The notes beneath the pieces were generated by a model that was given only the letters and a program-made list of their open reading frames with translations, ran no database searches and had not been told where the DNA came from. The translations under genes were made by a program, and so were the position numbers. This document shows positions 6,817-21,546 of a stretch of 64,000 bases of DNA, in pieces. This DNA is from Escherichia phage IME11: sequence record NC_019423.1; one strand, written 5' to 3'. Every line of letters starts with the position of its first letter. Within the stretch, counting starts at the first letter, position 1.

Positions 6817-6879
6817 TTAACTGGCTTACTGTAGAGTAAGCTTCCTATATACGATATAAGTTTGAACAGGAAACATGCT

Positions 6880-9800
6880 ATGTCAACATTTGACCGTCTG
6901 GCAGGTTTCGCAGACAGCATCACTAATGCTAAGCAAGTCGATGTCTCTACTGCAACCTCTCAGAAGCAAGCTGCACAAGGGCAAAGCCCTTTCCAATTAA
7001 CCCCAGAGAACGCTTACAATCTCCAAACAGGACGAGTAGGTAATCTTGGAACTGGTGCATTCGATCCAGGTTCACTTCAGGCTGATTTCACCCAAGCCTC
7101 CCCATTAGAAATCATTAATAAGTACGGTAATGAGCAAGGTCTACAGATTCTTAATAGCCGAGCTAATGCTGCTGATGTCGTACGTCAGGACTTATCTAAA
7201 CAGCGTACTAACTCAGAAGCATTTGGCGATACTCTTTCTGGTGTTGGTCTTGGTGTTGCTAATACCCTTGGGGGCATTGCTGCTCTTGGCACAGGTCTGG
7301 TCAATGATAATGCCGGGGCATCCATTGCTTCCGGGATGGATTGGCTGAATGAAGGTGTACATAATCTACAGTCTGATGCACTGAATGCTACTCGTAAGGT
7401 TGTTCAGAATCAGAACCAGATTTCTGCACAAGAGAACCAGAAACTCTATGAAGAAGATATCAAAAATGGGGAGAGCAGTTTGGTTGCCTCCTTGTCTCGC
7501 ATTGGTCGTGACGCTTTTGATTCTGTTGCTAATACACTTGATAATGGTATGGCTGCTTCCGATGGACTGAGTGAAGGTGTTGGTTCTCTCTTTACTGGTG
7601 GTCCACTTATCCGTGGTGTGTCTGCACTAGGTAAAGTAATGGTAGGTGGGGATAAAGCTGTTAAGGGTATTACCCTAGCTGCTGAGTTAGGTTCACGTCC
7701 TGCACAGGTTGCTCTGTCTGCTGGTCGTGTTGCTGCACCTGCTGTAGCAATCGGTGGTATGGAAGCTGGTGGAGCATACCAACAGACTGCTTCTGAAATC
7801 ATGAAGATGTCTCATCAAGAGTTGGCAAGTAAGTCTCCTGTATATCGACAACATATTGCTGATGGTTTATCTCCTGATGAAGCACGCCGTCAGACTGCAT
7901 CTGAAACAGGTATTACTGCTGCTGGCTTAACTGCTCCAGTTGCTGCTGCTACTGGTCCACTGGTATCTCGTTTTGAACTTAACCCACTTAAGGTAGGTTC
8001 ACTGGCTGGTGCTGGTTCTAACATGCTCCGTGAAACTGTAGAAGAGGGTATTCAATCCGGCTTCGGTCAGTTCGCACAGAACACTGCAATTAAGGAAAAT
8101 GTTGATGCATCCCGTGACACCCTCAAAGGGGTTGGTGAGCAAGCAGGTCTGGGTGCACTCTATGGCTTTGGTAGTGCTGGAGTTGCTCAAGCTCCTGGTG
8201 CAACTGTTAAAGCTGCTGGTGCTGCCGTTGGTCCTACTGTACGTACTACCTTGGCTGGTGCTTCTCTGGTTGGTAATGCACTAGCAAAAGTAGCTTCTCC
8301 TATCACTAACATTCTGGTTCAACGTGGAGAAGAAGTTGCTAAGCGAAATGAACAAGCATCTCCTGTATCAGATGCTACCGTTAATGCTGCTGCACAAGAA
8401 GCTACTGCTCAAGCAGAACAAGCACAAGCAACCGTACAGGAAGCAGTAGATGCAATGGATATTTCTCCTGAAGAGAAAGCTGCTGCTACTCAGTATGCTG
8501 CTGACTTAACTCAGGCAATGAAGTTTGACCCAGTAGAACTGGAGCAAGCTAACCCGGCAATCCGTGAAGCTGTTTCTGGTTCCACTAACCGTGTTGAGGC
8601 TATCCAGAAGATGGCTGACTTGGTTAATACTGCCGAAGACCCTAACATTCAAATGGAAGCTGCTATTCAGATGTATGACAACATCATGTCTATGGATAGC
8701 TTCATTAACCGTGACCCAGGTGCACTAGCTAATCTGGAACAAGGCTCTCCTGCTGCTAATATTGTTGACCAGTTCTCTGGTCTGATGGCTAACGTTCAGA
8801 ATACACCGAAGGTACTTCGTGCATTCCGTGCTATTCATTCCATGATTCAGGAACAGGCTGAAGCAGGTAAACTGAAAGCTACTGAAGAAGCTAACCAAGC
8901 TCAGGCAAACAACATTGCTATGGCTGCTGATATGTCTCCAGAAGTTCTGGATGCAGATTCAGTGAACATGGTTCTGAAACATGCTAGTGAAGGTAAGATT
9001 ACACTGGGGAATCGTCAACGTGCTGCCCTGCAATCGGCTGCTGCTGTCTTACAGGGTGCACGTGAGTTCGACGCTAAGGCAGAAGAACTTGGCTTACGTC
9101 CTCAAGACATTGTTAGTAAACAGATTAAAACTGACGAATCTCGTTCTAATGAAGGCCAGTACTCTGCGTTGCAACATGCGAAACGCATTCGCTCTGCGTA
9201 CAACTCTGGTAACTTTGATTTGGCCTCCGCTTACCTTGACGACTTTATGAAGTTCGCCCAGCACATGCAGAATAAGGTCGGAGCGTTGAATGAGCATCTG
9301 ATTTCGGGGAATGCGGATAAGAATAAGTCTGTTCACTATCAGGCTCTCTCGCCTTCCCGTGAATGGGTACGTAGTCGTACTGGCCTCGGTGTTAATCCGT
9401 ATGATACCAAGTCGGTTAAGTTTGCCCAGCAAGTAGGACTGGAAGCCAAGACCGTAGCTGATATTGCTAATGCACTTGCTACGGCTTACCCGGAGCTTAA
9501 TGTTTCTCATGTTAAAGTTACTCCATTAGATTCACGTCTGGACAAGCCTGCTGCCCAGGTGGTTAAAGAGTTCCGTCAGGGCAATCTTGACGCTGCTCAA
9601 TCCCAACAGACTAATGAACCAGTGAATCAGGTTGATGAATCTCCTGCACCAGTGCAAGAGGCCACTACTACTGTACAGCCTAAAACTAAACCAGTGGTAG
9701 AAAATAAATCTGCTCCTGTTAAGGATACTAGTTCAAAACCAGAAGAAGTAACTACTACTGAGTCTGAAACAGTAGATACTGCCCTCACCAATGAGGATAC

Positions 9801-12800
9801 CACTCAGGAAGTAGCTGAAACTAAAACGGAAATGGAAACAGTGTTCCCTGTCTATAACAATGACAAGACACCGAGCCAGTTCCTTAAAGCATTTGCTCTG
9901 CCGGAAGAACCTAAGACTCGTACCATTGGTTCTGAATCTCCTTTGACTGATGTTAAGCAAGCACTGTCTTCTGCTGCTCGCTTTGAAGCATTCACACAAA
10001 AAGAAAATAACGCTCTCACGGGTGATGTGATGAAACGTTATCAAGACTTACTAGGCTTTGGTGAAACTCTGAAGAGTACTCTGTCTGACCGTCTGGCTAA
10101 GTTCCTTGCTAACAAGAATGTTGGTAAACGTTTTGCAGAGGGTACTGAGGCTAACCGTTGGGTAGGTGGCAAACTGCTGAATATCGTTGAGAAAGATGGC
10201 GACACCTTTAAGTTCAACGACCAGTTGTTGGAGACTGCTGTACTTGCTGGATTGCAATGGCGATTAACTGCTACGCAGAATGCTGCCATTAAAGACATGA
10301 AAGACGTAGCTGCTATTACTGGTGTAGAAGTATCCTTGTTACCTGATGGTATTCTGGCTGACTTTGAGAATGCTCAGACCCTGGTTGAAGCTACTAACTC
10401 ACTGGCCCAAAAGATTGAATCTTACTGGGGTTTGAATCGTAATCCAAATGCACCACTGGGTTATACCAAAGGTATCCCAATGGCAATGGCTACGGAGATT
10501 CTGTCTTCTCTCATTGAGATGGGTGAAGTTAAAGAGTCTATGCTGGATGTGTCTGAAATTGACCCAGCCTCCAATAAGACTGTTGGTCTGTATACTATTG
10601 AGAAGCTGGATGATAATGATGCCATTAATAATTTTCCTACTGCTATTGAGGAAGCTGTCCTCGTAGAACCAGAAGAGAAAATGTACTTCGGTGATGATAT
10701 TCCTTCCGTGGCTCAAACTCAGTTACGTAACCCGGCTGTTAAGAATACCCCGGAACAGCAAGCTGCTCTTAAAGCAGAACAGGCTACTGAGTTCCGTGTA
10801 CACATGCCTATGGTTAACTTCTATGAAGCATTGGGTCGTGACAACATTCTGGAACTGATGGGTGCTGGTACTCTTAATCCTGAATTACTGAACGTAAACA
10901 CTGCTAAATCATTGGAAGGTAAAAACCTGTCCGTGTCTATGGCATACGATTCCTTGTTTGGGGTAATCAATCAGGTTCAGGAACAGGAGAACGGACTGGA
11001 TACACCTATTCACTATGGTTACAACATGACCCGTGTAGGTCGTATGCAGATGCTTGGTAAGAATAACCCACAATCCAGTAAGCTGGTTCGTGAAGCAATT
11101 CTGCCAACCTTCTCTACTATCGACTTGAGTAATGAAAACAGCCAAACGTTCTCAGACTTCCAGTTAGGTCTGGCTCAGGCATTAGGCATCAAGGTACATA
11201 ACATGTCCCGTGAAGCTATGTCTGAAAAGCTGACTAAAGCTCTGGAAGGTAATCTGAAACCTGCTGTTGATATGATGGTTGAGTTTGATAAGTCTGGTCA
11301 CTTACCTACTGATGCAGTGGATATTCTGAAGACCTCTTTAGGTGGCGATAAATCATTCGTAGCTCTCATGGCTCTGATGGAATATGCCCGTTACCTGAAT
11401 AGTAACGACCGTGCTAATTTTAATACCCCACTGTACGTTGAAGCCGATGGTGTAACCAACGGACCAATTAACGCAATGGTATTAATGACCGGTGGTAAGT
11501 TCACTCCAGACTGGATTAAGAATACTGCTAAAGGTGGTTTGTTCTTCGGTAAAGCTGGTAAGACTATGAACGAGCATCGTTCACAGGATGACAGTGTTGA
11601 CCTGTATGAAGCATCTACTAATGGTCTGCAACAGGCACTTGGTGAATTACGTAGTACTTACCGTAACAACGTTCCTGTTATGAGCCAGATGAGTCATCTC
11701 CAGAAGTTAATGGACCTGTTCATCAAAGACTTTAACCTGAATGAAGACGGTACACTGGACCTGAAACGTGGTATCGCTAAAAATCCACTAACCATTACCA
11801 TCTATGGTTCTGGTGCTCGTGGTATTGCTGGCAAGATGGTTAGTGCAATTACTGATACCATCTACGAACGCTTCAGCGACGTTCTGCAAGCTCGTGCTGC
11901 TGACCCTAGCATTTCCCCGGCTATGGCAATGTTTGGTAAGGAGGCTGCATCTGAGGCCGATGCTCAGGCTATGCTGGATACTTTCCTTACTTCTATGGAA
12001 GCACTGACTGGTAATGTTCCAGTTATGCGTAAGGGTGAGTTGTCTATTCAGCAAGCAGAAGGTGCTCTGACTGGTAAGTTAGACCCACAGAAGTTTACTG
12101 TATCTGGTAATGCCCTGAAGAACTTACAAGAGAACATGCTTCACCTGTTCGTTGAACCAATGCGTACTGGTATCCGAAATACTGTTGGTGAAGGTCTGAT
12201 GCATTCTACTGAGAACTTACAGAAGGCTACCCAGATTCAATCTCTGGTATTGCAGGATATGTTCCAACAAGCAGTACAGGCTAAACTGGCAGAAAAAGAA
12301 AAAGACCCAACATGGAAGAAAGGTGATTTCTTAACACAGAAAGAACTGAATGAAATTCAGGAATCATTATCTCCACTGGCTCCAATGATTGAGACTGGCT
12401 CACAGACTTTCTACATTGCTGGTAGTGAGAACACTGATGTTGCTAACCAAGTACTGGCTACTAACTTAGATGACCGTATGCGTGTGCCAATGAGCATCTA
12501 TGCTCCTTCACAAGCAGGTGTTGCAGGTATTCCATTTATGACCATCGGTACTGGTGACGGCATGATGATGCAGACCCTTTCTACTATGAAAGGTGCTCCG
12601 AAGAATACCCTGAAAATCTTTGATGGTATGAACATTGGTATCAATGACATCACTGATGCAAGTCGTAAAGCTAATGAGGCTGTATATACTTCCTGGCAGG
12701 GTAACCCTATCAAGAATGTTTATGACTCCTTTGCTAAGTTCATGAAGAACGTAGACTTCAGCAAACTGTCTGATGAAACCAAACAGGCTATCGCTAAATC

Positions 12801-15800
12801 TGCTCTGGAATACGACCAGCGTGAGGGTGCTACTGATGACCTGTTACGTATTGGTGCTGAACAGATTGAACGTAATCTGCGTAACATTGCTCTGGGTGTA
12901 GATATTCGCCACAAGGTAATGAACCAGGTACAGACTACTGTTGACCAGATGGCTGCTGTAGGTGCTCCTTATGTGAACAACGGTAAAATTTCTCTGGAAG
13001 GTCTGACTGTAGACCAACAAGTAGCTAAGCTGAACGAACTGTTTGATGTTGAATTAAACAAGCGTCGTGATGCAGTACGTGCTGCTAAAGCAGAACCAGT
13101 GAAAGAAGTACCAGCAATGGAACAGGTTGGTCGTGTACTGAAGTCTGGTGTACGTCTACTGTCTAATACTGCTATTACTAAGTTGGCTAAAGAGATGACT
13201 CCAGAACAGGCTGCTGTACTGAAAGAAGTACAGAACTCCCTTGCTGCTAAAGACTACAAGGTTGTTTATGGCACTCCTTCTCAACTGGATGCCTACGCTA
13301 TTGAGAAGAACATTACTCGCCCAGCACCGGAAGATATTGAAGCTGCTGAAGCTGGTAATGCATACGGCTGGACTAACTTTGATGATAAGACCATCTACTT
13401 AGTTACTCCTTCCTTAGAGACTCTGGTTCATGAATTGGTACATGCTTCTACTTTTGAATCTGTACTGGCTCACTATGAAGGTACTCCTAATGAAGCAGTT
13501 CAGAATATTGAAGACCTGATGAACCAGTTCCGAACTCTGGATGTTAAGGATGAATCCCCGGCAGTACGTGAAGCATATGCTGATGCACTCAATACCATTA
13601 ATGGTCACTTGTCTAATGGCTTTATTGAACCAGCAATGGCTAAAGCTGCTGCACTGAATGAGTACATGGCATGGGGCTTAACCAACCGTGAACTGATTGG
13701 TAAGCAGAAGAAAACCACTGCACTTAAGGCCATGGTTCAGTCTGTGTATGAAGCAATCAAACGTCTGGTATTCGGACGTAAGAAAGCCCCTGCTAACGCA
13801 GATGATATGTTCTCTGGCTTACTGTTTAACTCTTCTGTAGTTATGCGTGGGCAGGCTCCTACTGCTGCTGTAGCCAAGGACACTACTCTGTTCCATAACA
13901 AAGCATATGGTGACAATACTCGTCTGGAAGAGCTAGGGAAGACCTTCGATAAACTGATTACTAACTACATTGGTTCAGAACCAGTACAACAAGTAATTCG
14001 TAAAGGTAAGTTCTCTGATGCAGTAGTGAATGCAACTAAAGTAACCCGTGATGTTCAGGCTCATGGCTTCACTATGAATATGCAGGAACAGCGTCTCTTT
14101 ACTAACATTGTTGCTGCACTGGCTACCGAAGCTGCTATTAGTCCAGCTGCTCTGGCTCGTGCACAAGAATACTATGCACACGTAACCAAGAACCTGACTG
14201 TTGAAGCGTTCATGACTGACCCGGATAGTACTAACCCTGCTGACCGTTACTACGCACAGCAGAAGTTCGATACCATCATGGGTGCTAACAACATTGAGTT
14301 TGATGCACAAGGTCGTTCTTCCTTACTGCCTACCTTTGTGGCACTGGCAATGGTAAGTGAAGATGTACGTAATGTGCTGGCTGACATTCCTGTTATGAAA
14401 GCAGATAAGCAATCCGGTAATACCGTTGATGCAATGCTGACTAATATCGGTACTGCTGCAATGGCTAGTCTGAATGCTCGTGTAGCAGGTGATACTAAAG
14501 CTACCAATGTACAAGAAGGTATGGATGCACTGGCTCAGACCATCATGCAGACCAGTCTTAATGCACAGTCATTCTATGATTCCGTCGCCACTCCTAGTGG
14601 TAATGCTATAGACCGTGCTAACCAGTATCTGGTGGACTCTATTGATGTACTGTCTACCCGTGCTTTAGAAGGTGCTCGTGAAGTTGCAGCTAATACCAAG
14701 AACCCGTTGGTTAAAGGTGCTGCTCATGCTGCACAACTGGTAGCTGCTATTGCTACAGAGAAGAATGGTGCAATCGTAGCTGAAGGTGTTATGGCTGCAA
14801 TGAACCAGGGTAAAGCATGGCAACCTTTCCACGACCTGGTTAATGACTTAACCGGACGTACTAAGAGCAATGCTTCTGTATATGATTTGATTAAAGCAGT
14901 TCGTGCACAGGTACAGGCTGACCGTCAACAGTTCCGTGAACACTTACCTACCACTATCGCATCCAAGTTCAGCCGTAAGCTGACTAATGATGAGTGGAAA
15001 GCAATGCATACCGGTATGGGTAAAACTGACTTGGCTGTCCTGCGTGACACTATGTCTTTGGCTGAAATTCGTGACCTGCTGACTGACCAGAAGATTGTTG
15101 ACCGTGAGGTGAATAAGCTGGAAGCAGATTTACAGAAACAAGCAGGACGTAACTGGCCTTTGATTAGCCGTAAATCTAAGCAACTGGCTCAGTACATGAT
15201 TAACGGTACAGTCGGTAGTAACCTGCTGCGTAATGCTACTGCAATTTCTCGTATGCTGGGTGAACGACAGGCTGCACGTTCTACCGTAGATGTGGCTCAA
15301 CTGGATAAGCTGATTACCTTGTATGCACTGGAAGCAATGAATAAGACTGACCGTGAGATGTTATCTTCACTGGCTCAGACAGAAATTGAAGGTATGGACT
15401 TTGCTACTTCTTATCTGGTTGGGCAGCGTAAAGATGAAATGGCTAAAGCCAAGTCTGATATGCGTGCAACCTTGAACCAGTACAAAGGACATATCCCCAG
15501 TGAAACTAAACAGGGTGTTAACCTGATTGTTGCTGAAGATAGTCAGTTTGCTGATTTGATTGAGAAGTCCTATGTACGTCTGGGTACTTATCAAGGTAGT
15601 TCTGCTAACCGTGGTCCAGCACGTAGCTACTACTTTGCACCAGTACAGGCACAGGCTCCATTCTCACAGGGTATATTACAGAACGTTCGCAATACTGCTG
15701 GTGGTGTGGACCTTGGTACAGGCTTTACGATGGGTTCCATGGTAGCAGGTCGTATCACTGACAAGCCTTCCGTAGACCGTATCACTAAAGCTCTGGCTCG

Positions 15801-17232
15801 TGGTGAACGTGGTAATGAACCACTGCTGCCTGTATATGATGACAAAGGGAATGTGGTTGCTTATGAGCAATCCATTGACCCTAACATGCTGAAGCACATT
15901 GAGGGTGAGAACCATCTTGCTCGTGCAATCGGTGTATGGCGTGGTCGTCAGGTAGAAGAGGCTAAGGCTCAGCGTTTCAACGATATGCTTATTGAGAACC
16001 TACATAGCATGTATGAGAACGACATTAAGATGTCTGCCTCTAATAAGTCCCAGTACGTTAACCTTCTTGGTTCTAAACTGGACCCAGTAACTGCCGATGC
16101 TCTTAAGCTGATGAATAGTGAAACTCGTCAGAAAGCAGAAAGCCTGTTTGGCCCGGGTGAGTTGTGGGTACGTCGTGATATGCTCAACGATGCTCTTGGT
16201 TATCGTGCAGCTTCTGTAGGGGATGCCTGGTCTGGTAATTCTCGTTGGTCCCCAGAAACACTGGATACCTTCAAGAAAGCTATGCTAGGTGTATTTGGCA
16301 ATCGTGCATATAAGTACACAATGGGTGGTGAGAACCTGGTTCAGAACTTAGTTAAAGAAGCTAAGACCCTGATTGTAGTTAAGTCAGTAGTCGTACCTGC
16401 AGTTAACTTCCTAGCTAACCTTTACCAGATGGTTGCTCGTGGTGTACCGGTTAAGAACATTGCTAAGAGCATTCCACAGAAGACTGCTGAGATTAACCAG
16501 TACCTGAAATCTCGTCTACGTCAGGTAGATGCAGAAGCAGAATTACGTGCAGCTACTAACCCGAACCAGATTCGTAAACTTAAGGCTGAGATTCAGTCCA
16601 TCTCTGATAGCCATAAGCGTTTAAGTATCTGGCCTCTGTTAGAAGCTGGTGAGTTCTCTTCAATTGCAGATGCTGGTATCGGACGTGATGACATCCTTAT
16701 TACTGAGGGTAAACTTCACGAATACATGGATAAGCTGGCTGATAAGCTACCTAAGTCTGTACGTAACGCAGGTCGTTATGCACTTATCACTAAGGATACT
16801 GCTCTCTTCCAGGGTATCCAGAAGACGGTTGAGTACTCTGACTTTATCGCTAAAGCAATCATCTATGATGAACTGACTCAGCGTAAAGGTAAGACTCGTG
16901 AGGAAGCACTGGGACGTGTAACGGAAGAGTTCATTAACTATGATCGTTTACCTGGTCGCTTCCGTGGGTATATGGAAAGCATTGGCTTAATGTGGTTCTA
17001 CAACTTTAAGATTCGTTCTGCAAAAGTTGCAGTGTCCATGATTCGTAATAACCCAGTACATGCTGCTATGGCTATGTTGGCTCCAACCCCTACCATGTTT
17101 GGTAATGTTGGTTTACCTATTCAGGACAACATCTTCAGCATTGCTGCACAGGGCAATCTCGGTTACTCCTTCGGTTTCGGTCAGGGCTTACGTGCCCATA
17201 ACCTGAACCCTTGGCTCAATCTTACTAACTAA
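6880..17232 (+). CDS. virion-encapsidated giant RNA polymerase (N4 vRNAP-like)
   Basis: ~3450-aa single ORF (track start 6862 is TTG; ATG at 6880 follows AGGAA). T7-like motif A YVEADGVTNGPIN (Asp codon 11446-11448), motif B RGIAKNPLTITIYGSG (~11770-11815), motif C KIFDGMNIG (Asp codon 12622-12624). The two Asp are 392 aa apart, the spacing I recall for N4 vRNAP. Confidence 0.9.
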   Translation: MSTFDRLAGFADSITNAKQVDVSTATSQKQAAQGQSPFQLTPENAYNLQTGRVGNLGTGAFDPGSLQADFTQASPLEIINKYGNEQGLQILNSRANAADVVRQDLSKQRTNSEAFGDTLSGVGLGVANTLGGIAALGTGLVNDNAGASIASGMDWLNEGVHNLQSDALNATRKVVQNQNQISAQENQKLYEEDIKNGESSLVASLSRIGRDAFDSVANTLDNGMAASDGLSEGVGSLFTGGPLIRGVSALGKVMVGGDKAVKGITLAAELGSRPAQVALSAGRVAAPAVAIGGMEAGGAYQQTASEIMKMSHQELASKSPVYRQHIADGLSPDEARRQTASETGITAAGLTAPVAAATGPLVSRFELNPLKVGSLAGAGSNMLRETVEEGIQSGFGQFAQNTAIKENVDASRDTLKGVGEQAGLGALYGFGSAGVAQAPGATVKAAGAAVGPTVRTTLAGASLVGNALAKVASPITNILVQRGEEVAKRNEQASPVSDATVNAAAQEATAQAEQAQATVQEAVDAMDISPEEKAAATQYAADLTQAMKFDPVELEQANPAIREAVSGSTNRVEAIQKMADLVNTAEDPNIQMEAAIQMYDNIMSMDSFINRDPGALANLEQGSPAANIVDQFSGLMANVQNTPKVLRAFRAIHSMIQEQAEAGKLKATEEANQAQANNIAMAADMSPEVLDADSVNMVLKHASEGKITLGNRQRAALQSAAAVLQGAREFDAKAEELGLRPQDIVSKQIKTDESRSNEGQYSALQHAKRIRSAYNSGNFDLASAYLDDFMKFAQHMQNKVGALNEHLISGNADKNKSVHYQALSPSREWVRSRTGLGVNPYDTKSVKFAQQVGLEAKTVADIANALATAYPELNVSHVKVTPLDSRLDKPAAQVVKEFRQGNLDAAQSQQTNEPVNQVDESPAPVQEATTTVQPKTKPVVENKSAPVKDTSSKPEEVTTTESETVDTALTNEDTTQEVAETKTEMETVFPVYNNDKTPSQFLKAFALPEEPKTRTIGSESPLTDVKQALSSAARFEAFTQKENNALTGDVMKRYQDLLGFGETLKSTLSDRLAKFLANKNVGKRFAEGTEANRWVGGKLLNIVEKDGDTFKFNDQLLETAVLAGLQWRLTATQNAAIKDMKDVAAITGVEVSLLPDGILADFENAQTLVEATNSLAQKIESYWGLNRNPNAPLGYTKGIPMAMATEILSSLIEMGEVKESMLDVSEIDPASNKTVGLYTIEKLDDNDAINNFPTAIEEAVLVEPEEKMYFGDDIPSVAQTQLRNPAVKNTPEQQAALKAEQATEFRVHMPMVNFYEALGRDNILELMGAGTLNPELLNVNTAKSLEGKNLSVSMAYDSLFGVINQVQEQENGLDTPIHYGYNMTRVGRMQMLGKNNPQSSKLVREAILPTFSTIDLSNENSQTFSDFQLGLAQALGIKVHNMSREAMSEKLTKALEGNLKPAVDMMVEFDKSGHLPTDAVDILKTSLGGDKSFVALMALMEYARYLNSNDRANFNTPLYVEADGVTNGPINAMVLMTGGKFTPDWIKNTAKGGLFFGKAGKTMNEHRSQDDSVDLYEASTNGLQQALGELRSTYRNNVPVMSQMSHLQKLMDLFIKDFNLNEDGTLDLKRGIAKNPLTITIYGSGARGIAGKMVSAITDTIYERFSDVLQARAADPSISPAMAMFGKEAASEADAQAMLDTFLTSMEALTGNVPVMRKGELSIQQAEGALTGKLDPQKFTVSGNALKNLQENMLHLFVEPMRTGIRNTVGEGLMHSTENLQKATQIQSLVLQDMFQQAVQAKLAEKEKDPTWKKGDFLTQKELNEIQESLSPLAPMIETGSQTFYIAGSENTDVANQVLATNLDDRMRVPMSIYAPSQAGVAGIPFMTIGTGDGMMMQTLSTMKGAPKNTLKIFDGMNIGINDITDASRKANEAVYTSWQGNPIKNVYDSFAKFMKNVDFSKLSDETKQAIAKSALEYDQREGATDDLLRIGAEQIERNLRNIALGVDIRHKVMNQVQTTVDQMAAVGAPYVNNGKISLEGLTVDQQVAKLNELFDVELNKRRDAVRAAKAEPVKEVPAMEQVGRVLKSGVRLLSNTAITKLAKEMTPEQAAVLKEVQNSLAAKDYKVVYGTPSQLDAYAIEKNITRPAPEDIEAAEAGNAYGWTNFDDKTIYLVTPSLETLVHELVHASTFESVLAHYEGTPNEAVQNIEDLMNQFRTLDVKDESPAVREAYADALNTINGHLSNGFIEPAMAKAAALNEYMAWGLTNRELIGKQKKTTALKAMVQSVYEAIKRLVFGRKKAPANADDMFSGLLFNSSVVMRGQAPTAAVAKDTTLFHNKAYGDNTRLEELGKTFDKLITNYIGSEPVQQVIRKGKFSDAVVNATKVTRDVQAHGFTMNMQEQRLFTNIVAALATEAAISPAALARAQEYYAHVTKNLTVEAFMTDPDSTNPADRYYAQQKFDTIMGANNIEFDAQGRSSLLPTFVALAMVSEDVRNVLADIPVMKADKQSGNTVDAMLTNIGTAAMASLNARVAGDTKATNVQEGMDALAQTIMQTSLNAQSFYDSVATPSGNAIDRANQYLVDSIDVLSTRALEGAREVAANTKNPLVKGAAHAAQLVAAIATEKNGAIVAEGVMAAMNQGKAWQPFHDLVNDLTGRTKSNASVYDLIKAVRAQVQADRQQFREHLPTTIASKFSRKLTNDEWKAMHTGMGKTDLAVLRDTMSLAEIRDLLTDQKIVDREVNKLEADLQKQAGRNWPLISRKSKQLAQYMINGTVGSNLLRNATAISRMLGERQAARSTVDVAQLDKLITLYALEAMNKTDREMLSSLAQTEIEGMDFATSYLVGQRKDEMAKAKSDMRATLNQYKGHIPSETKQGVNLIVAEDSQFADLIEKSYVRLGTYQGSSANRGPARSYYFAPVQAQAPFSQGILQNVRNTAGGVDLGTGFTMGSMVAGRITDKPSVDRITKALARGERGNEPLLPVYDDKGNVVAYEQSIDPNMLKHIEGENHLARAIGVWRGRQVEEAKAQRFNDMLIENLHSMYENDIKMSASNKSQYVNLLGSKLDPVTADALKLMNSETRQKAESLFGPGELWVRRDMLNDALGYRAASVGDAWSGNSRWSPETLDTFKKAMLGVFGNRAYKYTMGGENLVQNLVKEAKTLIVVKSVVVPAVNFLANLYQMVARGVPVKNIAKSIPQKTAEINQYLKSRLRQVDAEAELRAATNPNQIRKLKAEIQSISDSHKRLSIWPLLEAGEFSSIADAGIGRDDILITEGKLHEYMDKLADKLPKSVRNAGRYALITKDTALFQGIQKTVEYSDFIAKAIIYDELTQRKGKTREEALGRVTEEFINYDRLPGRFRGYMESIGLMWFYNFKIRSAKVAVSMIRNNPVHAAMAMLAPTPTMFGNVGLPIQDNIFSIAAQGNLGYSFGFGQGLRAHNLNPWLNLTN

Positions 17233-17704: not shown

Positions 17705-18205
17705 TTACAGAATTACCCAGTCTTCTGCTAATACATCTGATTGGGATGGAACCCAAGGCATAAACTGGTCATCGACAGTTTTGATTCCCAACCACGGGCG
17801 TGGCTTCAGTTCATCAGCAAATCCTGGACGCTCTAAGCTACTACTGTTCCAATCTTGAGCGTCAACGTACTCAACATACATTCCTTTTCCGTTCCAACCT
17901 TTGCGGGCTAGCTTGAATCCTGATTTGAGAAGCTCTACTGCATGACCAAAGGTACAACCTTTTTCTACGTCATGGTATGCAGCTTCGAATGCAGTTTTAG
18001 GTGACCAGCTAATATAGCCACGGAACTGAGGATGGTTGGACTTCGAGTCTGGATACTCAACTAAGTAACCTACTTCTAGCGGGTCTTCATCTGCTGGTAC
18101 ATCCCAGCCACGAAGTTTGCAGTATGTTTCTTTGTTCATCCGGAAACCATTTACACACTTGGTTCCGATATAGTTGGTGAAATGGACTTTAATTTCTTCT
18201 GACAT
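17705..18205 (-). CDS. DUF2829-domain (Tad2-like) protein with extra N-terminal domain
   Basis: ATG at 18205 with GAGGT RBS (track ORF extends to 18343). C-terminal half LKSGFKLARKGWNGKGMYVEYV...RPWLGIKT...MPWVPSQSDVLAEDWVIL matches the DUF2829 pattern as I recall it. Confidence 0.5.
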   Translation of the reverse strand: MSEEIKVHFTNYIGTKCVNGFRMNKETYCKLRGWDVPADEDPLEVGYLVEYPDSKSNHPQFRGYISWSPKTAFEAAYHDVEKGCTFGHAVELLKSGFKLARKGWNGKGMYVEYVDAQDWNSSSLERPGFADELKPRPWLGIKTVDDQFMPWVPSQSDVLAEDWVIL

Positions 18206-18349
18206 AACTACCTCAAATGATAAAGCCCTCACTAGGAGGGCTTGTTTTGTTTTGGCTTCTAAAGCCTTACCACATGTCGGGTAGTTCTGTACCTTTCGGT
18301 GAAAACTACCATATACCTGTTTGCTAAATGGTGCAACCACCACTAACTT

Positions 18350-18598
18350 TTATTTAGAATATTGCCCTTTCGTATACTCAATGAAGTATCCGAACTTAGC
18401 TTCATACTCTGTAGGGGGATGTTTGCTTACATGGTGTTTAGCCATACTAAGTAATTCCTTTTCCAACTTATTTACATTGATTGTATCTGCTGTTTCCCCA
18501 ATAGGGAACTTATGGTGGTAAGCTGGTTCAGAAGTAATTTTTCCGCTTTTAGCTAAAACTTTAACGGAAGCAAACCCAACTTTAGGGTTTATATCCAT
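18350..18598 (-). CDS. hypothetical protein
   Basis: 82-aa ORF abutting its neighbour. Confidence 0.4.
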   Translation of the reverse strand: MDINPKVGFASVKVLAKSGKITSEPAYHHKFPIGETADTINVNKLEKELLSMAKHHVSKHPPTEYEAKFGYFIEYTKGQYSK

Positions 18599-19020
18599 TA
18601 GATTTTACAACCCCCACCTTCACACTCATTATTTTCCAGGAAGCCCTTCAGCATTTCTTGGCTCTGAGCTTGCTCATGCAGATTCTGCTTAAGCAGGTAA
18701 CCTTCCAGTAACCAGACCTTATCGATTGCATTTTCATAGGCAATCTTACGCCCAATTTCTTCGTTGAAGTTTCCCGGGGATGCACAGGCAGACTCACCAG
18801 TAACAGTGAAGCCATTCTCCAGAACCAGTACACAGAAAGTCAGCAGAGATAGTGACTGTACTTCCTGGTTCTTAATGGTTGCTAAGTCTGGTAGTACAGA
18901 TGCTGCACCATCCAGGCCAGTAAAGAAGTAAGTACCAAGTACTTTACTCTTGATGTGGTCAGGGGTAATGCGTGGAGCTTTATCAGCACCAGCTTCTTTA
19001 ATCTGTTGTTCGAGTTCCAT
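18598..19020 (-). CDS. N4 gp49-like protein (Phage_gp49_66 family)
   Basis: ATG at 19020 with GAGGA RBS (track start 19047); segment TFCVLVLENGFTVTGESACASPGNFNEEIGRKIAYENAIDKVWLLEGYLL resembles the gp49/Sf6 gene 66 family. Confidence 0.5.
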   Translation of the reverse strand: MELEQQIKEAGADKAPRITPDHIKSKVLGTYFFTGLDGAASVLPDLATIKNQEVQSLSLLTFCVLVLENGFTVTGESACASPGNFNEEIGRKIAYENAIDKVWLLEGYLLKQNLHEQAQSQEMLKGFLENNECEGGGCKI

Positions 19021-19046
19021 AGATTCCTCAGTGTTTATGTTATTCA

Positions 19047-19069
19047 AATAAAAAAGTCCCCCAGAGGGG
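19047..19069 (-). terminator. putative rho-independent terminator downstream of the tRNA cluster
   Basis: Minus-strand reading gives CCCC-tct-GGGG followed by ACTTTTTTATTT. Confidence 0.45.
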
Positions 19070-19328
19070 CGACTCTAGGGGACTTAGTACTATTTACCCA
19101 TAGCTGGGAGGCTTTTGGTTCTTACCACGAAGACAGTCCACGCTGACTAGGCTTGGGATTGATAGTCCCGTTCCTGTGGTAATTACTCAGGCTAGGATTT
19201 AAGGAGTTCCTATTCTCCAGCGAAATTCCCGTCGAGGGGAATAACAATACAATAGCAGTCACTGGACTGTCTTACCAGTGTTGTCTTTAGAGTGCTATGC
19301 AATCAGGACTATGTTACTGCTGAATGGG

Positions 19329-19402
19329 TGTCCACTACTGGATTTGAACCAGTGACTTTCCGATTATTAGTCGGTTGCTTTCCCCGTCTAAGCTAAGTGG
19401 AC
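19329..19402 (-). tRNA. tRNA; manual fold gives anticodon loop CUAAUAA (anticodon AAU, Ile-reading) - needs software confirmation
   Basis: 74-nt cloverleaf: 7-bp acceptor GTCCACT/AGTGGAC, D arm GCTT/AAGC, anticodon stem CCGA/TCGG, T arm ACTGG-TTCAAAT-CCAGT; CCA not encoded. Confidence 0.6.
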
Positions 19403-19408
19403 TTATTA

Positions 19409-19484
19409 TGGTTACCCAGGCAGGATTCGAACCTGCGTCCTAGTTGGTTTACTAGTGGGGCTTTACCACTAAGCCTACTGGGTA
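19409..19484 (-). tRNA. tRNA-like gene with encoded CCA and non-canonical anticodon loop (6 or 8 nt)
   Basis: 76 nt: perfect 7-bp acceptor TACCCAG/CTGGGTA, D arm GGCT/AGCC, T arm GCAGG-TTCGAAT-CCTGC, discriminator A plus CCA. The anticodon arm only pairs as CTAGT/ACTAG with a 6-nt loop (AAACCA) or as a 4-bp stem with an 8-nt loop. Confidence 0.55.
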
Positions 19485-19724
19485 TTAATAGGGGAGTCAT
19501 GCCAGGCTTTAACTGGCTCCTTCTTCGCAATCCTTACATACCCCTACATAATTATTGCGTTAAGCTTTTTTGTTTAAGTTTAAGTGAAGGCGTTCTTGCT
19601 GACTCATTGTTGGATGCTCCCGGGTATCTGAACTATTGAACGGGTGTTTCCAGCCATGCAGGCGTTCAAGATGTTTGGGAGCATAATTCTTTCAATTCAG
19701 AGTAGCACTGTTGCAGTCGTCACT

Positions 19725-19798
19725 GCCCATAGGTAAGGATTCGAACCTTACAATACCGTTAGTTTGCAACGTCGCTGTACCATTTCGCGTTCTATGCA
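19725..19798 (-). tRNA. tRNA-like element, possibly degenerate
   Basis: T arm TAAGG-TTCGAAT-CCTTA present; acceptor pairing has a G-G mismatch; anticodon loop lacks U33; resembles the neighbouring element. Confidence 0.3.
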
Positions 19799-19812
19799 AT
19801 GCTACTTTGAAT

Positions 19813-19879
19813 TGGTTCCGGCGTCTGGACTCGAACCAGAACACTCACGTTTGTGCACAACGCTAGTACCTACACCGGA
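19813..19879 (-). tRNA. compact tRNA-like gene (67 nt, encoded CCA, anticodon loop GUGCACA suggesting GCA/Cys, reduced D arm)
   Basis: Acceptor TCCGGTG/CGCCGGA (one G-U), T arm TCTGG-TTCGAGT-CCAGA, anticodon stem GCGTT/AACGT, 3' ACCA; only 7 nt where the D arm should be. Confidence 0.4.
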
Positions 19880-21105
19880 ATTAATTGCCAGGGATTCCAC
19901 CTGGCTCTATCTGTTTTTATAGTCACTCAGATATCGTCTGGACTTGTTGTGGTGACCGGTACTGATCTCCGGCATAAGGCGCTTATTCGGCGGCGTCGAG
20001 CTTGCTTATTCGCTTGAGCCATCCTCGTGAGTCAGCCACGTCCCACTGCGCATCAGCCTGCACATTCACCACAACGGAAAGAGCACTGATGCGCTCACTT
20101 GGGACTCCTTAGCCATAACCCACGGGCTTCTGGTACACCAATGCTCTTACCTGTTGTGTGCCCATTATTAATCACACCGGGCCAGTGCGCCGAATTTGTT
20201 TACAAGGAATCGGAAGACCTTGCTGACTTATAGGCTATTACGCCGCCATCAGAACAACATCATCGTTTGCATTTATGTTATTGGTTCGTTTCTAAAAAAC
20301 CACATAATCGCTTACGAAAACTATCAAAGAGTACACTTACTCGACTGGTTAAACTACATCTGTCCAGCTCCGCAACAAATATACTCATTGATAGGATGTC
20401 ATAATAGGGGAGGGAGGACGAATCCCTCTTTACCCTATGGTTTAGTTTACATGTAAGACCTAACATCTCTATGCTGGATGAATAGCGTAATGAACTATCC
20501 GACATCATTGGTTAATGTTGTGCTCAACATGAGCGTTAGTTGATAAGGGATCTGAAGCCTTATCCTAAAGATACTAACCTTTGGGATATAGCCTAAGATT
20601 CAGAAATGGCCCCTATAGGGAGAGGCCATTGATTAACCCGAATGTTGCTTTACATTTTCTGTGATAACCCATTCTTAAAATAGTCTACCTGACGGATGGG
20701 AGTTAACCCTAGCGTCAGTGCCATACGGCAAAGATTAAGTTAAGAAAGGTTACGATAGGAGTTCCTATCTCAAAGGATTCTAACAGAACCCTTCACGATA
20801 TTAACTATTCATTGTGAAATTCTTTGTTTCCTTCAGCAGGTTCTACACCCAAGAAAAAGCTAACTTTTCCACTTAGTTTAGATTGAACCAATGGACTTCG
20901 GAGAGTATTAAAGCCCACTGGTTCGGTTGTTGTTGTTACTCTGGCGGCTTGTCACCACCGTGTTTACCACTGCATTTCCACAGGATAATGACAGTGATGA
21001 TAAAAGCTATGTATGGAGCCGACACGTCTATAATCCTGACCAGTAGTAGCATCAGGACTATAAACACTACCACACCTAGCAGCAGCTTCTGAGCCACCTA
21101 CCAGA

Positions 21106-21546
21106 TTAACTACGTTTCAGGCCAGCGAACAGTGAAGGTTTCGCAGCAGGTTTCTCTACTGGTTCTTCAGCCTTAACTTCTTCCTGCACAACTTCTTCTT
21201 GTGCTTCTGGTTCAGCTACTGCTTCTTCTTCAGGTTCCGGCGTAGAACTCTCGTTCTGACCACCAGTAGAGGTCTGGGTTTCTTCTACCTTTACCTCTTC
21301 AACTACTTCTTCCGGCTCTGGTTCTACCGGGCGATGTTTAGCTTCTTGAGGGTTCTTACGAGAACGGCGAGTTTTCTTCTCTACTCCCACGGGTGGAGTA
21401 TCTTCATGAACCTCTTCGTTGATGCCAACGGAGGCAGTACCATCTGCATTGATGACAATACTAATGTCACCAGCAAGATTGATTTGATCATCGACATAAG
21501 CCTGTACAGCAGCTTCTACTTCGGACTGGTTCAAAATGATTTGCAT
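21106..21546 (-). CDS. acidic Glu-rich hypothetical protein
   Basis: 146-aa ORF with ATG start; extremely Glu/Val/Pro-rich C-terminal half; stop overlaps the RuvC-like start. Confidence 0.5.
   Translation of the reverse strand: MQIILNQSEVEAAVQAYVDDQINLAGDISIVINADGTASVGINEEVHEDTPPVGVEKKTRRSRKNPQEAKHRPVEPEPEEVVEEVKVEETQTSTGGQNESSTPEPEEEAVAEPEAQEEVVQEEVKAEEPVEKPAAKPSLFAGLKRS

Follow-up and report, generated by a model that had tools for sequence, protein, structure and literature searches.

In the 64,000-nt stretch of the Escherichia phage IME11 genome analyzed here (NC_019423.1; hereafter, the window), four tRNA-like elements are encoded on the minus strand as genuine RNA genes within an island of back-to-back structured RNAs that spans ~1.3 kb, from position 20386 to 19054. 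On balance, we favor the interpretation that this island contains one decoding tRNA, tRNA-Ile(AAU) at 19329-19402, and three non-decoding tRNA mimics, termed tRNA2 (19409-19484), el3 (19701-19806), and el4 (19813-19879), and that these modular stable RNAs are processed from one precursor. The three non-decoding RNAs most likely act as tRNA mimics or processing modules.

The best match to this region is vB_EcoP_CU10EC (98%), and the phage is an N4-like coliphage of the genus Gamaleyavirus (Schitoviridae); N4, AL25, and KP8 carry tRNA genes at the equivalent genome position, and the tRNA region is strongly mosaic among relatives. An earlier note, made from the sequence alone, had described a tRNA cluster with non-canonical members, and its coordinates and its description of all four elements are accurate. 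The T-loop motif GGTTCRANTCC occurs four times in the 64 kb (at 19340, 19423, 19737, and 19827), always on the minus strand and once per element, versus 0.14 occurrences expected by chance from shuffled sequences. Only two of the four elements are called by ARAGORN and Rfam, and neither program assigns canonical 7-nt anticodon loops to all four. Beyond that note, the 74-nt element at 19725-19798 turned out to be a helix-enclosed domain of a larger RNA (el3), the 67-nt element (el4) is the most conserved segment of the whole island, and a transfer-messenger RNA (tmRNA)-like RNA, hereafter the tag RNA, lies directly upstream with its core at 20386-20160.

The element at 19329-19402 folds cleanly into a canonical cloverleaf with an AAU anticodon, as the earlier note had read it; ARAGORN reports it as tRNA-Ile(aat), it scores 65.6 bits against the Rfam tRNA model, and the minimum-energy fold agrees. 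It is the only one of the four elements with a 5-bp anticodon stem, a 7-nt loop (CUAAUAA), U33, and a purine at position 37, and it also has a D arm with G18-G19 and a free 7-bp acceptor end with a discriminator base; the 3' end is ACCC, without an encoded terminal A. The identity set of isoleucyl-tRNA synthetase comprises A35, U36, A37, A38, A73, C4-G69, U12-A23, and C29-G41. All these elements are present in 19329-19402, and position 34 alone departs, with A replacing G or lysidine. Outside tRNA-Arg(ACG), bacterial-type tRNAs very rarely have A34. The anticodon fits the codon preference of the phage, with ATT used at 34.1 and ATC at 16.9 per thousand codons in the 29 long open reading frames (ORFs) of the window, a skew that is stronger than in E. 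coli. The aat anticodon is kept in all Gamaleyavirus relatives examined and is so annotated in GenBank records, as well as in the description of the UE-S5 phages (PMC11927229), which also carry tRNA-Cys(ACA). We observed tRNA-Cys genes with the ACA anticodon in two close relatives, UE-S5b (contig L001, 2700-2779) and contig L012 (11404-11482); in the IME11 ORFs, TGT is used at 5.3 and TGC at 2.1 per thousand. Gamaleyavirus phages hold, in other words, A34 tRNAs fitted to U-ending codons. A34 probably stays unmodified, because inosine in the Cys tRNA would read the UGA stop codon as well. tRNA-Ile(AAU) is a predicted working decoder of AUU, the preferred Ile codon of the phage, via a Watson-Crick pair, and its charging is likewise predicted; it is ordinary in function, with A34 as its sole unusual trait. 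In its full cloverleaf and its fit to the over-used ATT codon it resembles canonical phage elongator tRNAs, unlike tRNA2, el3, and el4, which lack features required for decoding. UE-S5b also contains three further unannotated T-arm elements (at about 2270, 2330, and 2470).

tRNA2 is a tRNA-shaped RNA with intact acceptor, D (G18-G19), and T arms, a free acceptor end, and an encoded CCA. As the earlier note had stated, its anticodon arm pairs only with a 6-nt or an 8-nt loop: the segment CCACUAGUAAACCAACUAGG can form either CUAGU/ACUAG around a 6-nt loop (AAACCA) or CUAG/CUAG around an 8-nt loop, and a reading of the sequence in every register found none that pairs with a 7-nt loop. ARAGORN calls this element 'tRNA-???' with a two-base anticodon, equivalent to a 6-nt loop, the Rfam tRNA model matches it with 42.8 bits while skipping the anticodon arm as an 18-nt insertion, and both the minimum-energy and the centroid folds adopt the AAACCA loop, on a 5-bp stem in the former. 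tRNA2 is present in 18 Gamaleyavirus records, and tRNAscan-SE labels it 'tRNA-Undet-NNN' in the UE-S5 phages (PMC11927229). Across five distinct sequences, the anticodon arm is constant except for one loop base (CCA to CTA), the acceptor pair 6-67 changes from A-U to G-C by compensatory substitutions on both sides, one T-stem pair changes from G-C to G-U, and the D loop varies with its GG retained; every substitution seen in these relatives keeps the structure. The homolog in Klebsiella phage KP8 (~74% identical, annotated 'tRNA-Leu') has an unrelated loop of 6 or 8 nt and again no 7-nt loop, and in a further tRNA-like RNA of KP8 the loop has 4 or 6 nt. Derivation of tRNA2 from the host was considered and rejected, as blastn found no match among 5,426 E. 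coli genomes.

The earlier note had pointed to the 8-nt loop as the architecture of +1 frameshift-suppressor tRNAs, which would let tRNA2 read a four-base codon. Suppressors of the sufD/sufJ type have a 5-bp anticodon stem, U33, a normal variable loop, and one extra loop base. tRNA2 shares with them an anticodon loop that is not 7 nt long, its body and CCA end are intact, and the 8-nt register (UAAACCAA) is geometrically possible; however, this register yields a 4-bp stem, or 5 bp with a bulge, has A33 in place of U33, and shortens the variable region to 2 nt, whereas the predicted folds prefer the 6-nt loop. Moreover, the loop is not conserved, given the CCA to CTA change in relatives and the unrelated loop of the KP8 homolog, and no frameshift-requiring gene was identified, though none was searched for. 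The suppressor proposal did not hold up, and we regard it as extremely improbable. Instead, tRNA2 presumably is a tRNA-shaped RNA with a contracted anticodon loop that does not decode.

The acceptor mismatches that had been noticed at 19725-19798 are genuine, and relatives explain them: the element has no free end, and its stem is continued by an enclosing helix of 10 bp (19806-19797 with 19710-19701). In the resulting el3 module, the 5' half consists of AGUAGCAUUG, CAUAG, a D arm, a short arm, and a T arm, and the 3' half consists of CUAUG, G, the hairpin GCAGU-GACG-ACUGC (19726-19713), AA, and CAGUGCUACU; the tRNA-like core with its 5-bp stem, D arm, short variable 'anticodon' arm, and T arm occupies 19796-19728. 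We aligned el3 with its counterparts from F22, E20, Bas96, and Salmonella phage TR2 (genus Triduovirus). In these five sequences 97.6% of cells are paired, and 9 of the 33 pairs are changed on both sides, including five of the ten pairs of the enclosing helix. None of 500 shuffles was as good, and slid controls reached at most 53% of cells paired. The 'anticodon' loop, which reads GCAAACU here and UAGCCAU in relatives, lacks U33. The module keeps a D arm, its acceptor end is shut by the extra helix, and CCA is absent. The 3' strand of the enclosing helix in TR2 leads straight into UUUGAU-AGUUUUCG, the start of the tmRNA-like RNA. Helices of this kind also enclose variable inserts elsewhere, both in IME11 (20158-20069 and 20386-20329) and in numerous other phages (GUAAGAGCAUU-insert-AGUGCUCUUUCC). 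We therefore infer that el3 is a non-decoding tRNA-like domain locked in a 10-bp helix.

The 67-nt el4 has no D arm; a 9-nt linker, UAGGUACUA, joins its 7-bp acceptor stem to a 5-bp stem capped by the loop GUGCACA, and a canonical T arm, A73, and CCA follow. This bears out the previously described reduced D arm and GCA-like anticodon region. No ARAGORN call was obtained for either el4 or 19725-19798, nor did the Rfam tRNA model match them at E up to 10 in a search of 1.6 kb; other records annotate el4 as tRNA-Undet or tRNA-OTHER. About 60 records, including N4, AL25, and KP8-like and Gamaleya phages, carry el4 at ~89-100% identity (92-100% for N4, AL25, KP8, and Gamaleyavirus), and a few more match more weakly; an el4 covariance model finds strong copies only in this N4-like subfamily. 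Between the island of IME11 and that of N4, just three segments can be aligned, and the el4 block is 92.0% identical, as compared with 79.5% and 82.6% for the other two. The acceptor stem, the linker, the T loop, and the ACCA end are invariant, and seven pairs in el4 and its leader are changed on both sides with pairing kept; for instance, the 5-bp 'anticodon' stem covaries (C-G with U-A, U-A with C-G), and the T stem covaries in KP8. IME11 and KP8 have the 7-nt loop GUGCACA, N4 and other phages have the 6-nt loop GUGCAC, and Bas96 has GUGCCC. Since this loop has 6 or 7 nt depending on the phage, and in IME11 carries G32 and, instead of a purine, C37, el4 is not a decoder.

el4 is always preceded by a 65-nt leader (19944-19880) with two covarying hairpins, AGUC-CAGA..UCUG..GACU and GCCAGG-UGGAAUC-CCUGGC, and a leader of identical type, with compensatory changes, ends the tmRNA-like RNA of an unrelated phage contig (L064). 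Three other ideas about el4 were tried and discarded or weakened. An extended 9-10-bp arm (UACU/AGUG), as in the minimum-energy fold, has pairs that are broken in KP8 and in contigs L019 and L024; an invariant kissing loop formed by the palindrome GUGCAC is weakened by the GUGCCC of Bas96; and candidate distant homologs beside the tag RNAs of other phage families score only at the generic tRNA level (~30 bits), leaving their homology unsupported.

Architecturally, el4 matches the tRNA-like domain (TLD) of tmRNA, with its acceptor stem, its single helix, its T arm, and a D loop that contains GG and is unpaired. Mitochondrial tRNA-Ser(AGY) lacks a D arm, and el4 is similar to it in its short linker and its length of 67 nt; it differs in its fully canonical bacterial T loop, the GG in the linker, and the 6-7-nt loop, so that it is no decoder. 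The closest precedent for el4 is the TLD-only tmRNA of mycobacteriophage DS6A (Hudson, Lau and Williams, 2014; PMC4131195), which was proposed to titrate SmpB after Mao et al. (2009). Both RNAs are small and consist of an acceptor stem, a T arm, and a stemless D loop without a message part; however, el4 lacks G3:U70, shows no sequence similarity to tmRNA ends, and matches no tmRNA model.

The earlier note had also proposed that the 67-nt and 74-nt elements, which share a cgttg...gcaaac core, arose by duplication. The core is present in IME11 and absent from the versions in relatives, where the corresponding site reads TGTCGTGCACGGCA in one element and CGTTAGCCATACG in the other; in addition, the covariance model built from the 67-nt element misses the 74-nt element. 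A common origin by duplication is thus not borne out.

The observed mosaicism of the tRNA region raises the alternative that tRNA2, el3, and el4 are decaying tRNA pseudogenes, functionless and carried along in a recombining region. In line with this, the fold of el3 is no better than that of shuffled sequences (z-score of -0.1 for 19725-19798 alone), the loops of el3 and el4 are constant neither in length nor in sequence, and tRNA2 relatives differ in a loop base, with the encoded CCA lost in ST4 and E20. Decay is nonetheless difficult to reconcile with the compensatory changes on both sides of pairs in el3 and el4, with the conservation of el4 over three genera at a level above that of the flanking alignable sequence, and with the retention of el3 between Escherichia Gamaleyavirus and Salmonella Triduovirus with half of its enclosing-helix pairs compensated. 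We consider the pseudogene explanation unlikely. Several observations, however, weigh against the interpretation of the three elements as maintained tRNA mimics. Relatives of tRNA2 are all at least 90% identical, so the sequences argue weakly for purifying selection, and the evidence, while real, is thin because the relatives are so close; the loss of CCA and the changed loop base in ST4 and E20 also fit an early decay of this element. As for el4, it has C3-G70 instead of G3:U70, and therefore is not an alanine acceptor like a true TLD, and N4 has el4 without the tag RNA, hence el4 cannot depend on that RNA.

Under the favored interpretation of one decoding tRNA and three mimics, the island would be transcribed as a single precursor ending at a strong intrinsic terminator (19085-19054; a 13-bp stem followed by a T run), which closes the island. 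The tRNA shapes would attract host RNase P, the CCA-adding enzyme, and 3' exonucleases, whose action on the precursor would release defined, stable pieces. Two of these, tRNA2 and el4, may then remain as tRNA mimics with a CCA end, engaging host factors that bind tRNA and reading no codons; candidate partners include SmpB, defense nucleases, and enzymes that modify acceptor ends. The tRNA cluster of phage T4 produces stable 'species 1/2' RNAs that are tRNA-shaped and non-decoding. Plant mitochondrial t-elements are another class of tRNA-shaped, non-decoding structures, where RNase P and 3' processing enzymes define RNA ends (PMC1920247). The IME11 elements, whose processing is presumed, are similar to both in being non-decoding tRNA shapes inside longer transcripts or tRNA clusters; in contrast, the closure of el3 by a long helix is an arrangement not described for t-elements.

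A more specific version of mimicry would make tRNA2 and el4 anti-defense decoys that absorb host effectors targeting tRNAs, such as anticodon nucleases or acceptor-end modifying enzymes. Phage tRNAs are known to counter tRNA-cleaving defenses, and in both elements the conservation of the acceptor stem, the T arm, and CCA contrasts with a decoding loop that can vary freely. The accessory region also encodes a protein with a Tad2-like anti-Thoeris domain (17705-18343), a weak argument from association. Association is all that this link amounts to, and the loops are unlike any host anticodon loop compared by eye; the decoy role appears quite unlikely.

Directly upstream of the el4 leader and the elements described above, the unannotated tag RNA (20386-20160, minus strand) was found via a sub-threshold match to the Rfam tmRNA_permuted model (33.1 bits versus a gathering threshold of 47); beta_tmRNA scored 20.2 versus 84 bits, and tmRNA models also match sub-threshold in five other related loci. 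From 5' to 3', we delineated helix A (20386-20380 with 20335-20329), which encloses a GGAGCUG..UCGAG remnant; a PK1-like pseudoknot (20325 to about 20271), whose pairing was read by eye only and whose register differs between families; the tag frame (20270-20238); a helix-5-like hairpin (20252-20223) that holds the stop codon; a PK2-like H-type pseudoknot (20222-20190); and a hairpin (20183-20160). The tag frame GCA AAC GAT GAT GTT GTT CTG ATG GCG GCG TAA encodes ANDDVVLMAA* in 10 codons without a start codon, and an in-frame TAG lies eight codons upstream. Further downstream are a long-helix module (CACAACAGGTAAGAGCATT-insert-AGTGCTCTTTCCGTTGTGG; 20158-20069), which has the same kind of enclosing helix as el3 and recurs with varying inserts in related phage RNAs, and the 3' part of the tmRNA-like RNA (20072-19946), comprising GTGGTGAAT..GCAGGCTGATGCGC.. 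and the closing segment GCCGGAGATCAGTACCGGTCACCACAAC, blocks that are common to T1-like and lambdoid phage contigs.

We collected 45 related tag loci from a filtered pattern scan of viral contigs, to which annotated phage records were added; the unfiltered scan of viral contigs with a 14-mer from the tag had given many chance matches in coding sequences, which the filtering removed. These loci contain 24 distinct tag nucleotide sequences and 14 peptides, including ANDDVVLMAA, ANDEQFLAVA, ANEEMYLAVA, ANDNVFLAVA, and ANDDLMMVAA. The frame always comprises 10 codons followed by a stop (TAA, TAG, and TGA are all used), most variation falls at third codon positions, and the other two frames are closed. 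Thus, as in tmRNA, the tag has no start codon, begins with GCA, ends with a hydrophobic residue followed by A-A, and is conserved at the peptide level. The tmRNA arrangement of a stop codon within helix 5 and flanking pseudoknots is also present, the PK1-like pairing again by eye only. The covariation score of the tag RNA is 0.291, as compared with 0.146 in shuffled alignments, and none of 500 shuffles scored as high; 91.8% of cells are paired in the outer stem of the helix-5-like hairpin, 97.6% in stem 1 of the PK2-like pseudoknot, and 88% in its stem 2, where three of three pairs covary.

The tag RNA shares with permuted tmRNA (Rfam RF04321; 'tmRNA*' of ARAGORN) the gene order of a long helix, a pseudoknot or hairpin, AUAAAU-GCA-AAC-GA, and the tag, as well as a 10-codon tag ending in a hydrophobic residue and A-A and a stop codon within a helix-5-like hairpin, and its best Rfam matches are the tmRNA_permuted and beta_tmRNA families. 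It differs in its sub-threshold score and at the TLD position, which holds only GGAGCUGGAC-14 nt-CAGUCGAG, a 14-nt hairpin; the acceptor-like strand GGAGCUG (20371-20365, minus strand) would give A3-U70, and there is no CCA. A search of the region for a TLD (G3:U70, T arm, and ACCA end) found no CAGCUCCACCA-like end, a search of the window for a tmRNA 3' end (CAGCTCCACCA) returned nothing relevant, and the GGTTCRANTCC scan revealed no T loop upstream of 19837. ARAGORN predicted no tmRNA here or in 20 related loci, and with Rfam it gave none in any enterobacterial-phage locus tested. About 40 nt upstream of the GGAGCUG strand, a T-arm-like hairpin GAGGG-AUUCGUC-CUCCC (20428-20412), also observed in UE-S5b, was noticed by eye only and may be what is left of a permuted tmRNA acceptor piece. 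We infer that the tag RNA derives from a permuted tmRNA; the four tRNA-like elements adjoin it and share modules with it.

The core of the tag RNA matches 759 phage records, which include N4-like, T1-like, Felixounavirus, Kuttervirus, and Erwinia phages and P1, and 145 of 5,426 complete E. coli genomes; among the matches listed, none has an RNA annotation at this position, and the RNA is not in Rfam 15. A full-text literature search found no description of a tmRNA-like RNA in enterobacterial phages, which is not proof of absence, and no small-RNA data for N4. ARAGORN predicts complete permuted (two-piece) tmRNAs on seven IMG/VR viral contigs (L033, L037, L065, L081, L101, L130, and L075), with very similar tags (such as ANDERFLMAA and ANDNAFLMAA) and near-identical tag ends; the tag RNA of enterobacterial phages is probably related to these genes or descended from them. 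In phage P1 (L151, MH422554.1; ~1490-1660), a tag RNA encoding ANDDLMMVAA* is located between dmt and the tRNA-Asn and tRNA-Thr genes, and a long-helix module with a T-arm insert follows these tRNAs; both the module and the tag RNA are unannotated in MH422554.1. In KP8 and Felixounavirus, tRNA-like RNAs with defective or odd anticodon arms and the alanine identity set (G3:U70, A73, and CCA) occur near tag RNAs (KP8, L007, 1658-1732; Felixounavirus Alf5, L153, 1666-1747). In Alf5, this element comes immediately after the tag RNA, and a TTGACA-17-TATAGT promoter marks where the tag RNA starts.

These observations bear on another explanation, in which el4 or another tRNA-like element of the island serves as a TLD acting in trans for a split phage tmRNA, with the tag RNA as the message part. 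In favor of it, a 10-codon frame that looks translatable persists in the tag RNA over 14 peptide variants with no TLD in cis, el4, with its TLD-like architecture, comes directly after it, alanine-type RNAs accompany tag RNAs in KP8 and Felixounavirus, and complete permuted tmRNAs with similar tags exist on viral contigs. However, el4 has no alanine identity, as its C3-G70 pair indicates, its closed structure offers no obvious pairing with the tag RNA, and the two RNAs occur apart, with el4 alone in N4 and the tag RNA alone in T1-like and lambdoid contigs. This split-tmRNA role is very unlikely for el4 or its neighbors. A one-piece variant with el4 as the 3' end of the tmRNA was rejected: both acceptor strands of el4 are local, no upstream TCCGG[CT]G partner is found near the tag, and the spacing from tag to el4 is 359 nt here and in KP8 and 246 nt in UE-S5b. 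We put forward, as a tentative and rather unlikely possibility, a broader proposal: a previously unrecognized phage RNA family, horizontally shuffled and descended from permuted tmRNA, with a tag and pseudoknots and no TLD in cis, would have the odd tRNA-like RNAs as its tRNA-like partners or its processing modules. The family is represented in N4-like, T1-like, lambdoid, Felix O1-like, Vi01-like, and P1 phages.

The four elements are located in a ~2-kb minus-strand stretch poor in ORFs, between a gp47-like ORF (21106-21546) and an ORF of the gp49/66 family (18598-19047), which places the island between gp47-like and gp48/49-like genes; elsewhere in the window, a 3,456-aa ORF (6862-17232) corresponds to the virion RNA polymerase of N4-like Gamaleyavirus phages. 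A 212-aa minus-strand ORF ~1 kb downstream of the island (17705-18343) has the C-terminal Tad2-like (Thoeris anti-defense 2) domain mentioned above (Pfam PF11195, E = 6.6e-24), and because of this proximity the neighborhood may be considered an accessory or anti-defense region. A Pfam scan of the flanking ORFs identified no SmpB-like and no RNA-processing protein. Several other features of the minus strand were noted. About 16 nt upstream of tRNA2, the hairpin GCCAG-TTAAAGC-CTGGC (19517-19501), which recurs in relatives, resembles the second leader hairpin upstream of el4. The interval between el3 and tRNA2 contains a candidate additional helix-enclosed module, UAUGCUCCC...GGGAGCAU (19685-19612). 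The ~250 nt from tRNA-Ile to the terminator (19330-19078) are ~82% conserved in KP8 and partly conserved in N4; the sole ORF there is a 46-aa GTG ORF (19122-19262), and the segment could encode a further non-coding RNA or a small protein.

Other records already list two of the odd elements as undetermined tRNAs. What appears to be new is that they are conserved and covary, that el3 is enclosed by a helix, and that they are linked to a widespread tmRNA-like RNA lacking annotation. The usual explanation for tRNA genes in phages is that they assist codon usage. In IME11, only one of the four tRNA-shaped genes is predicted to decode, and yet the others appear to be retained by selection across phage genera, which points to non-decoding uses of the tRNA shape in processing, mimicry, and defense or counter-defense. 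The tag-encoding tmRNA-like RNA may matter more than the odd tRNAs. If it is translated, these phages would interfere with or replace bacterial ribosome rescue in a way that has not been described. If the proposed family of split tmRNAs is real, phages would run or subvert ribosome rescue with their own degradation tags, ending in ...LMAA or ...LAVA, and the tRNA half would be provided, or else blocked, by el4-like mini-tRNAs or by the G3:U70 tRNA-like RNAs that KP8 and Felixounavirus carry.

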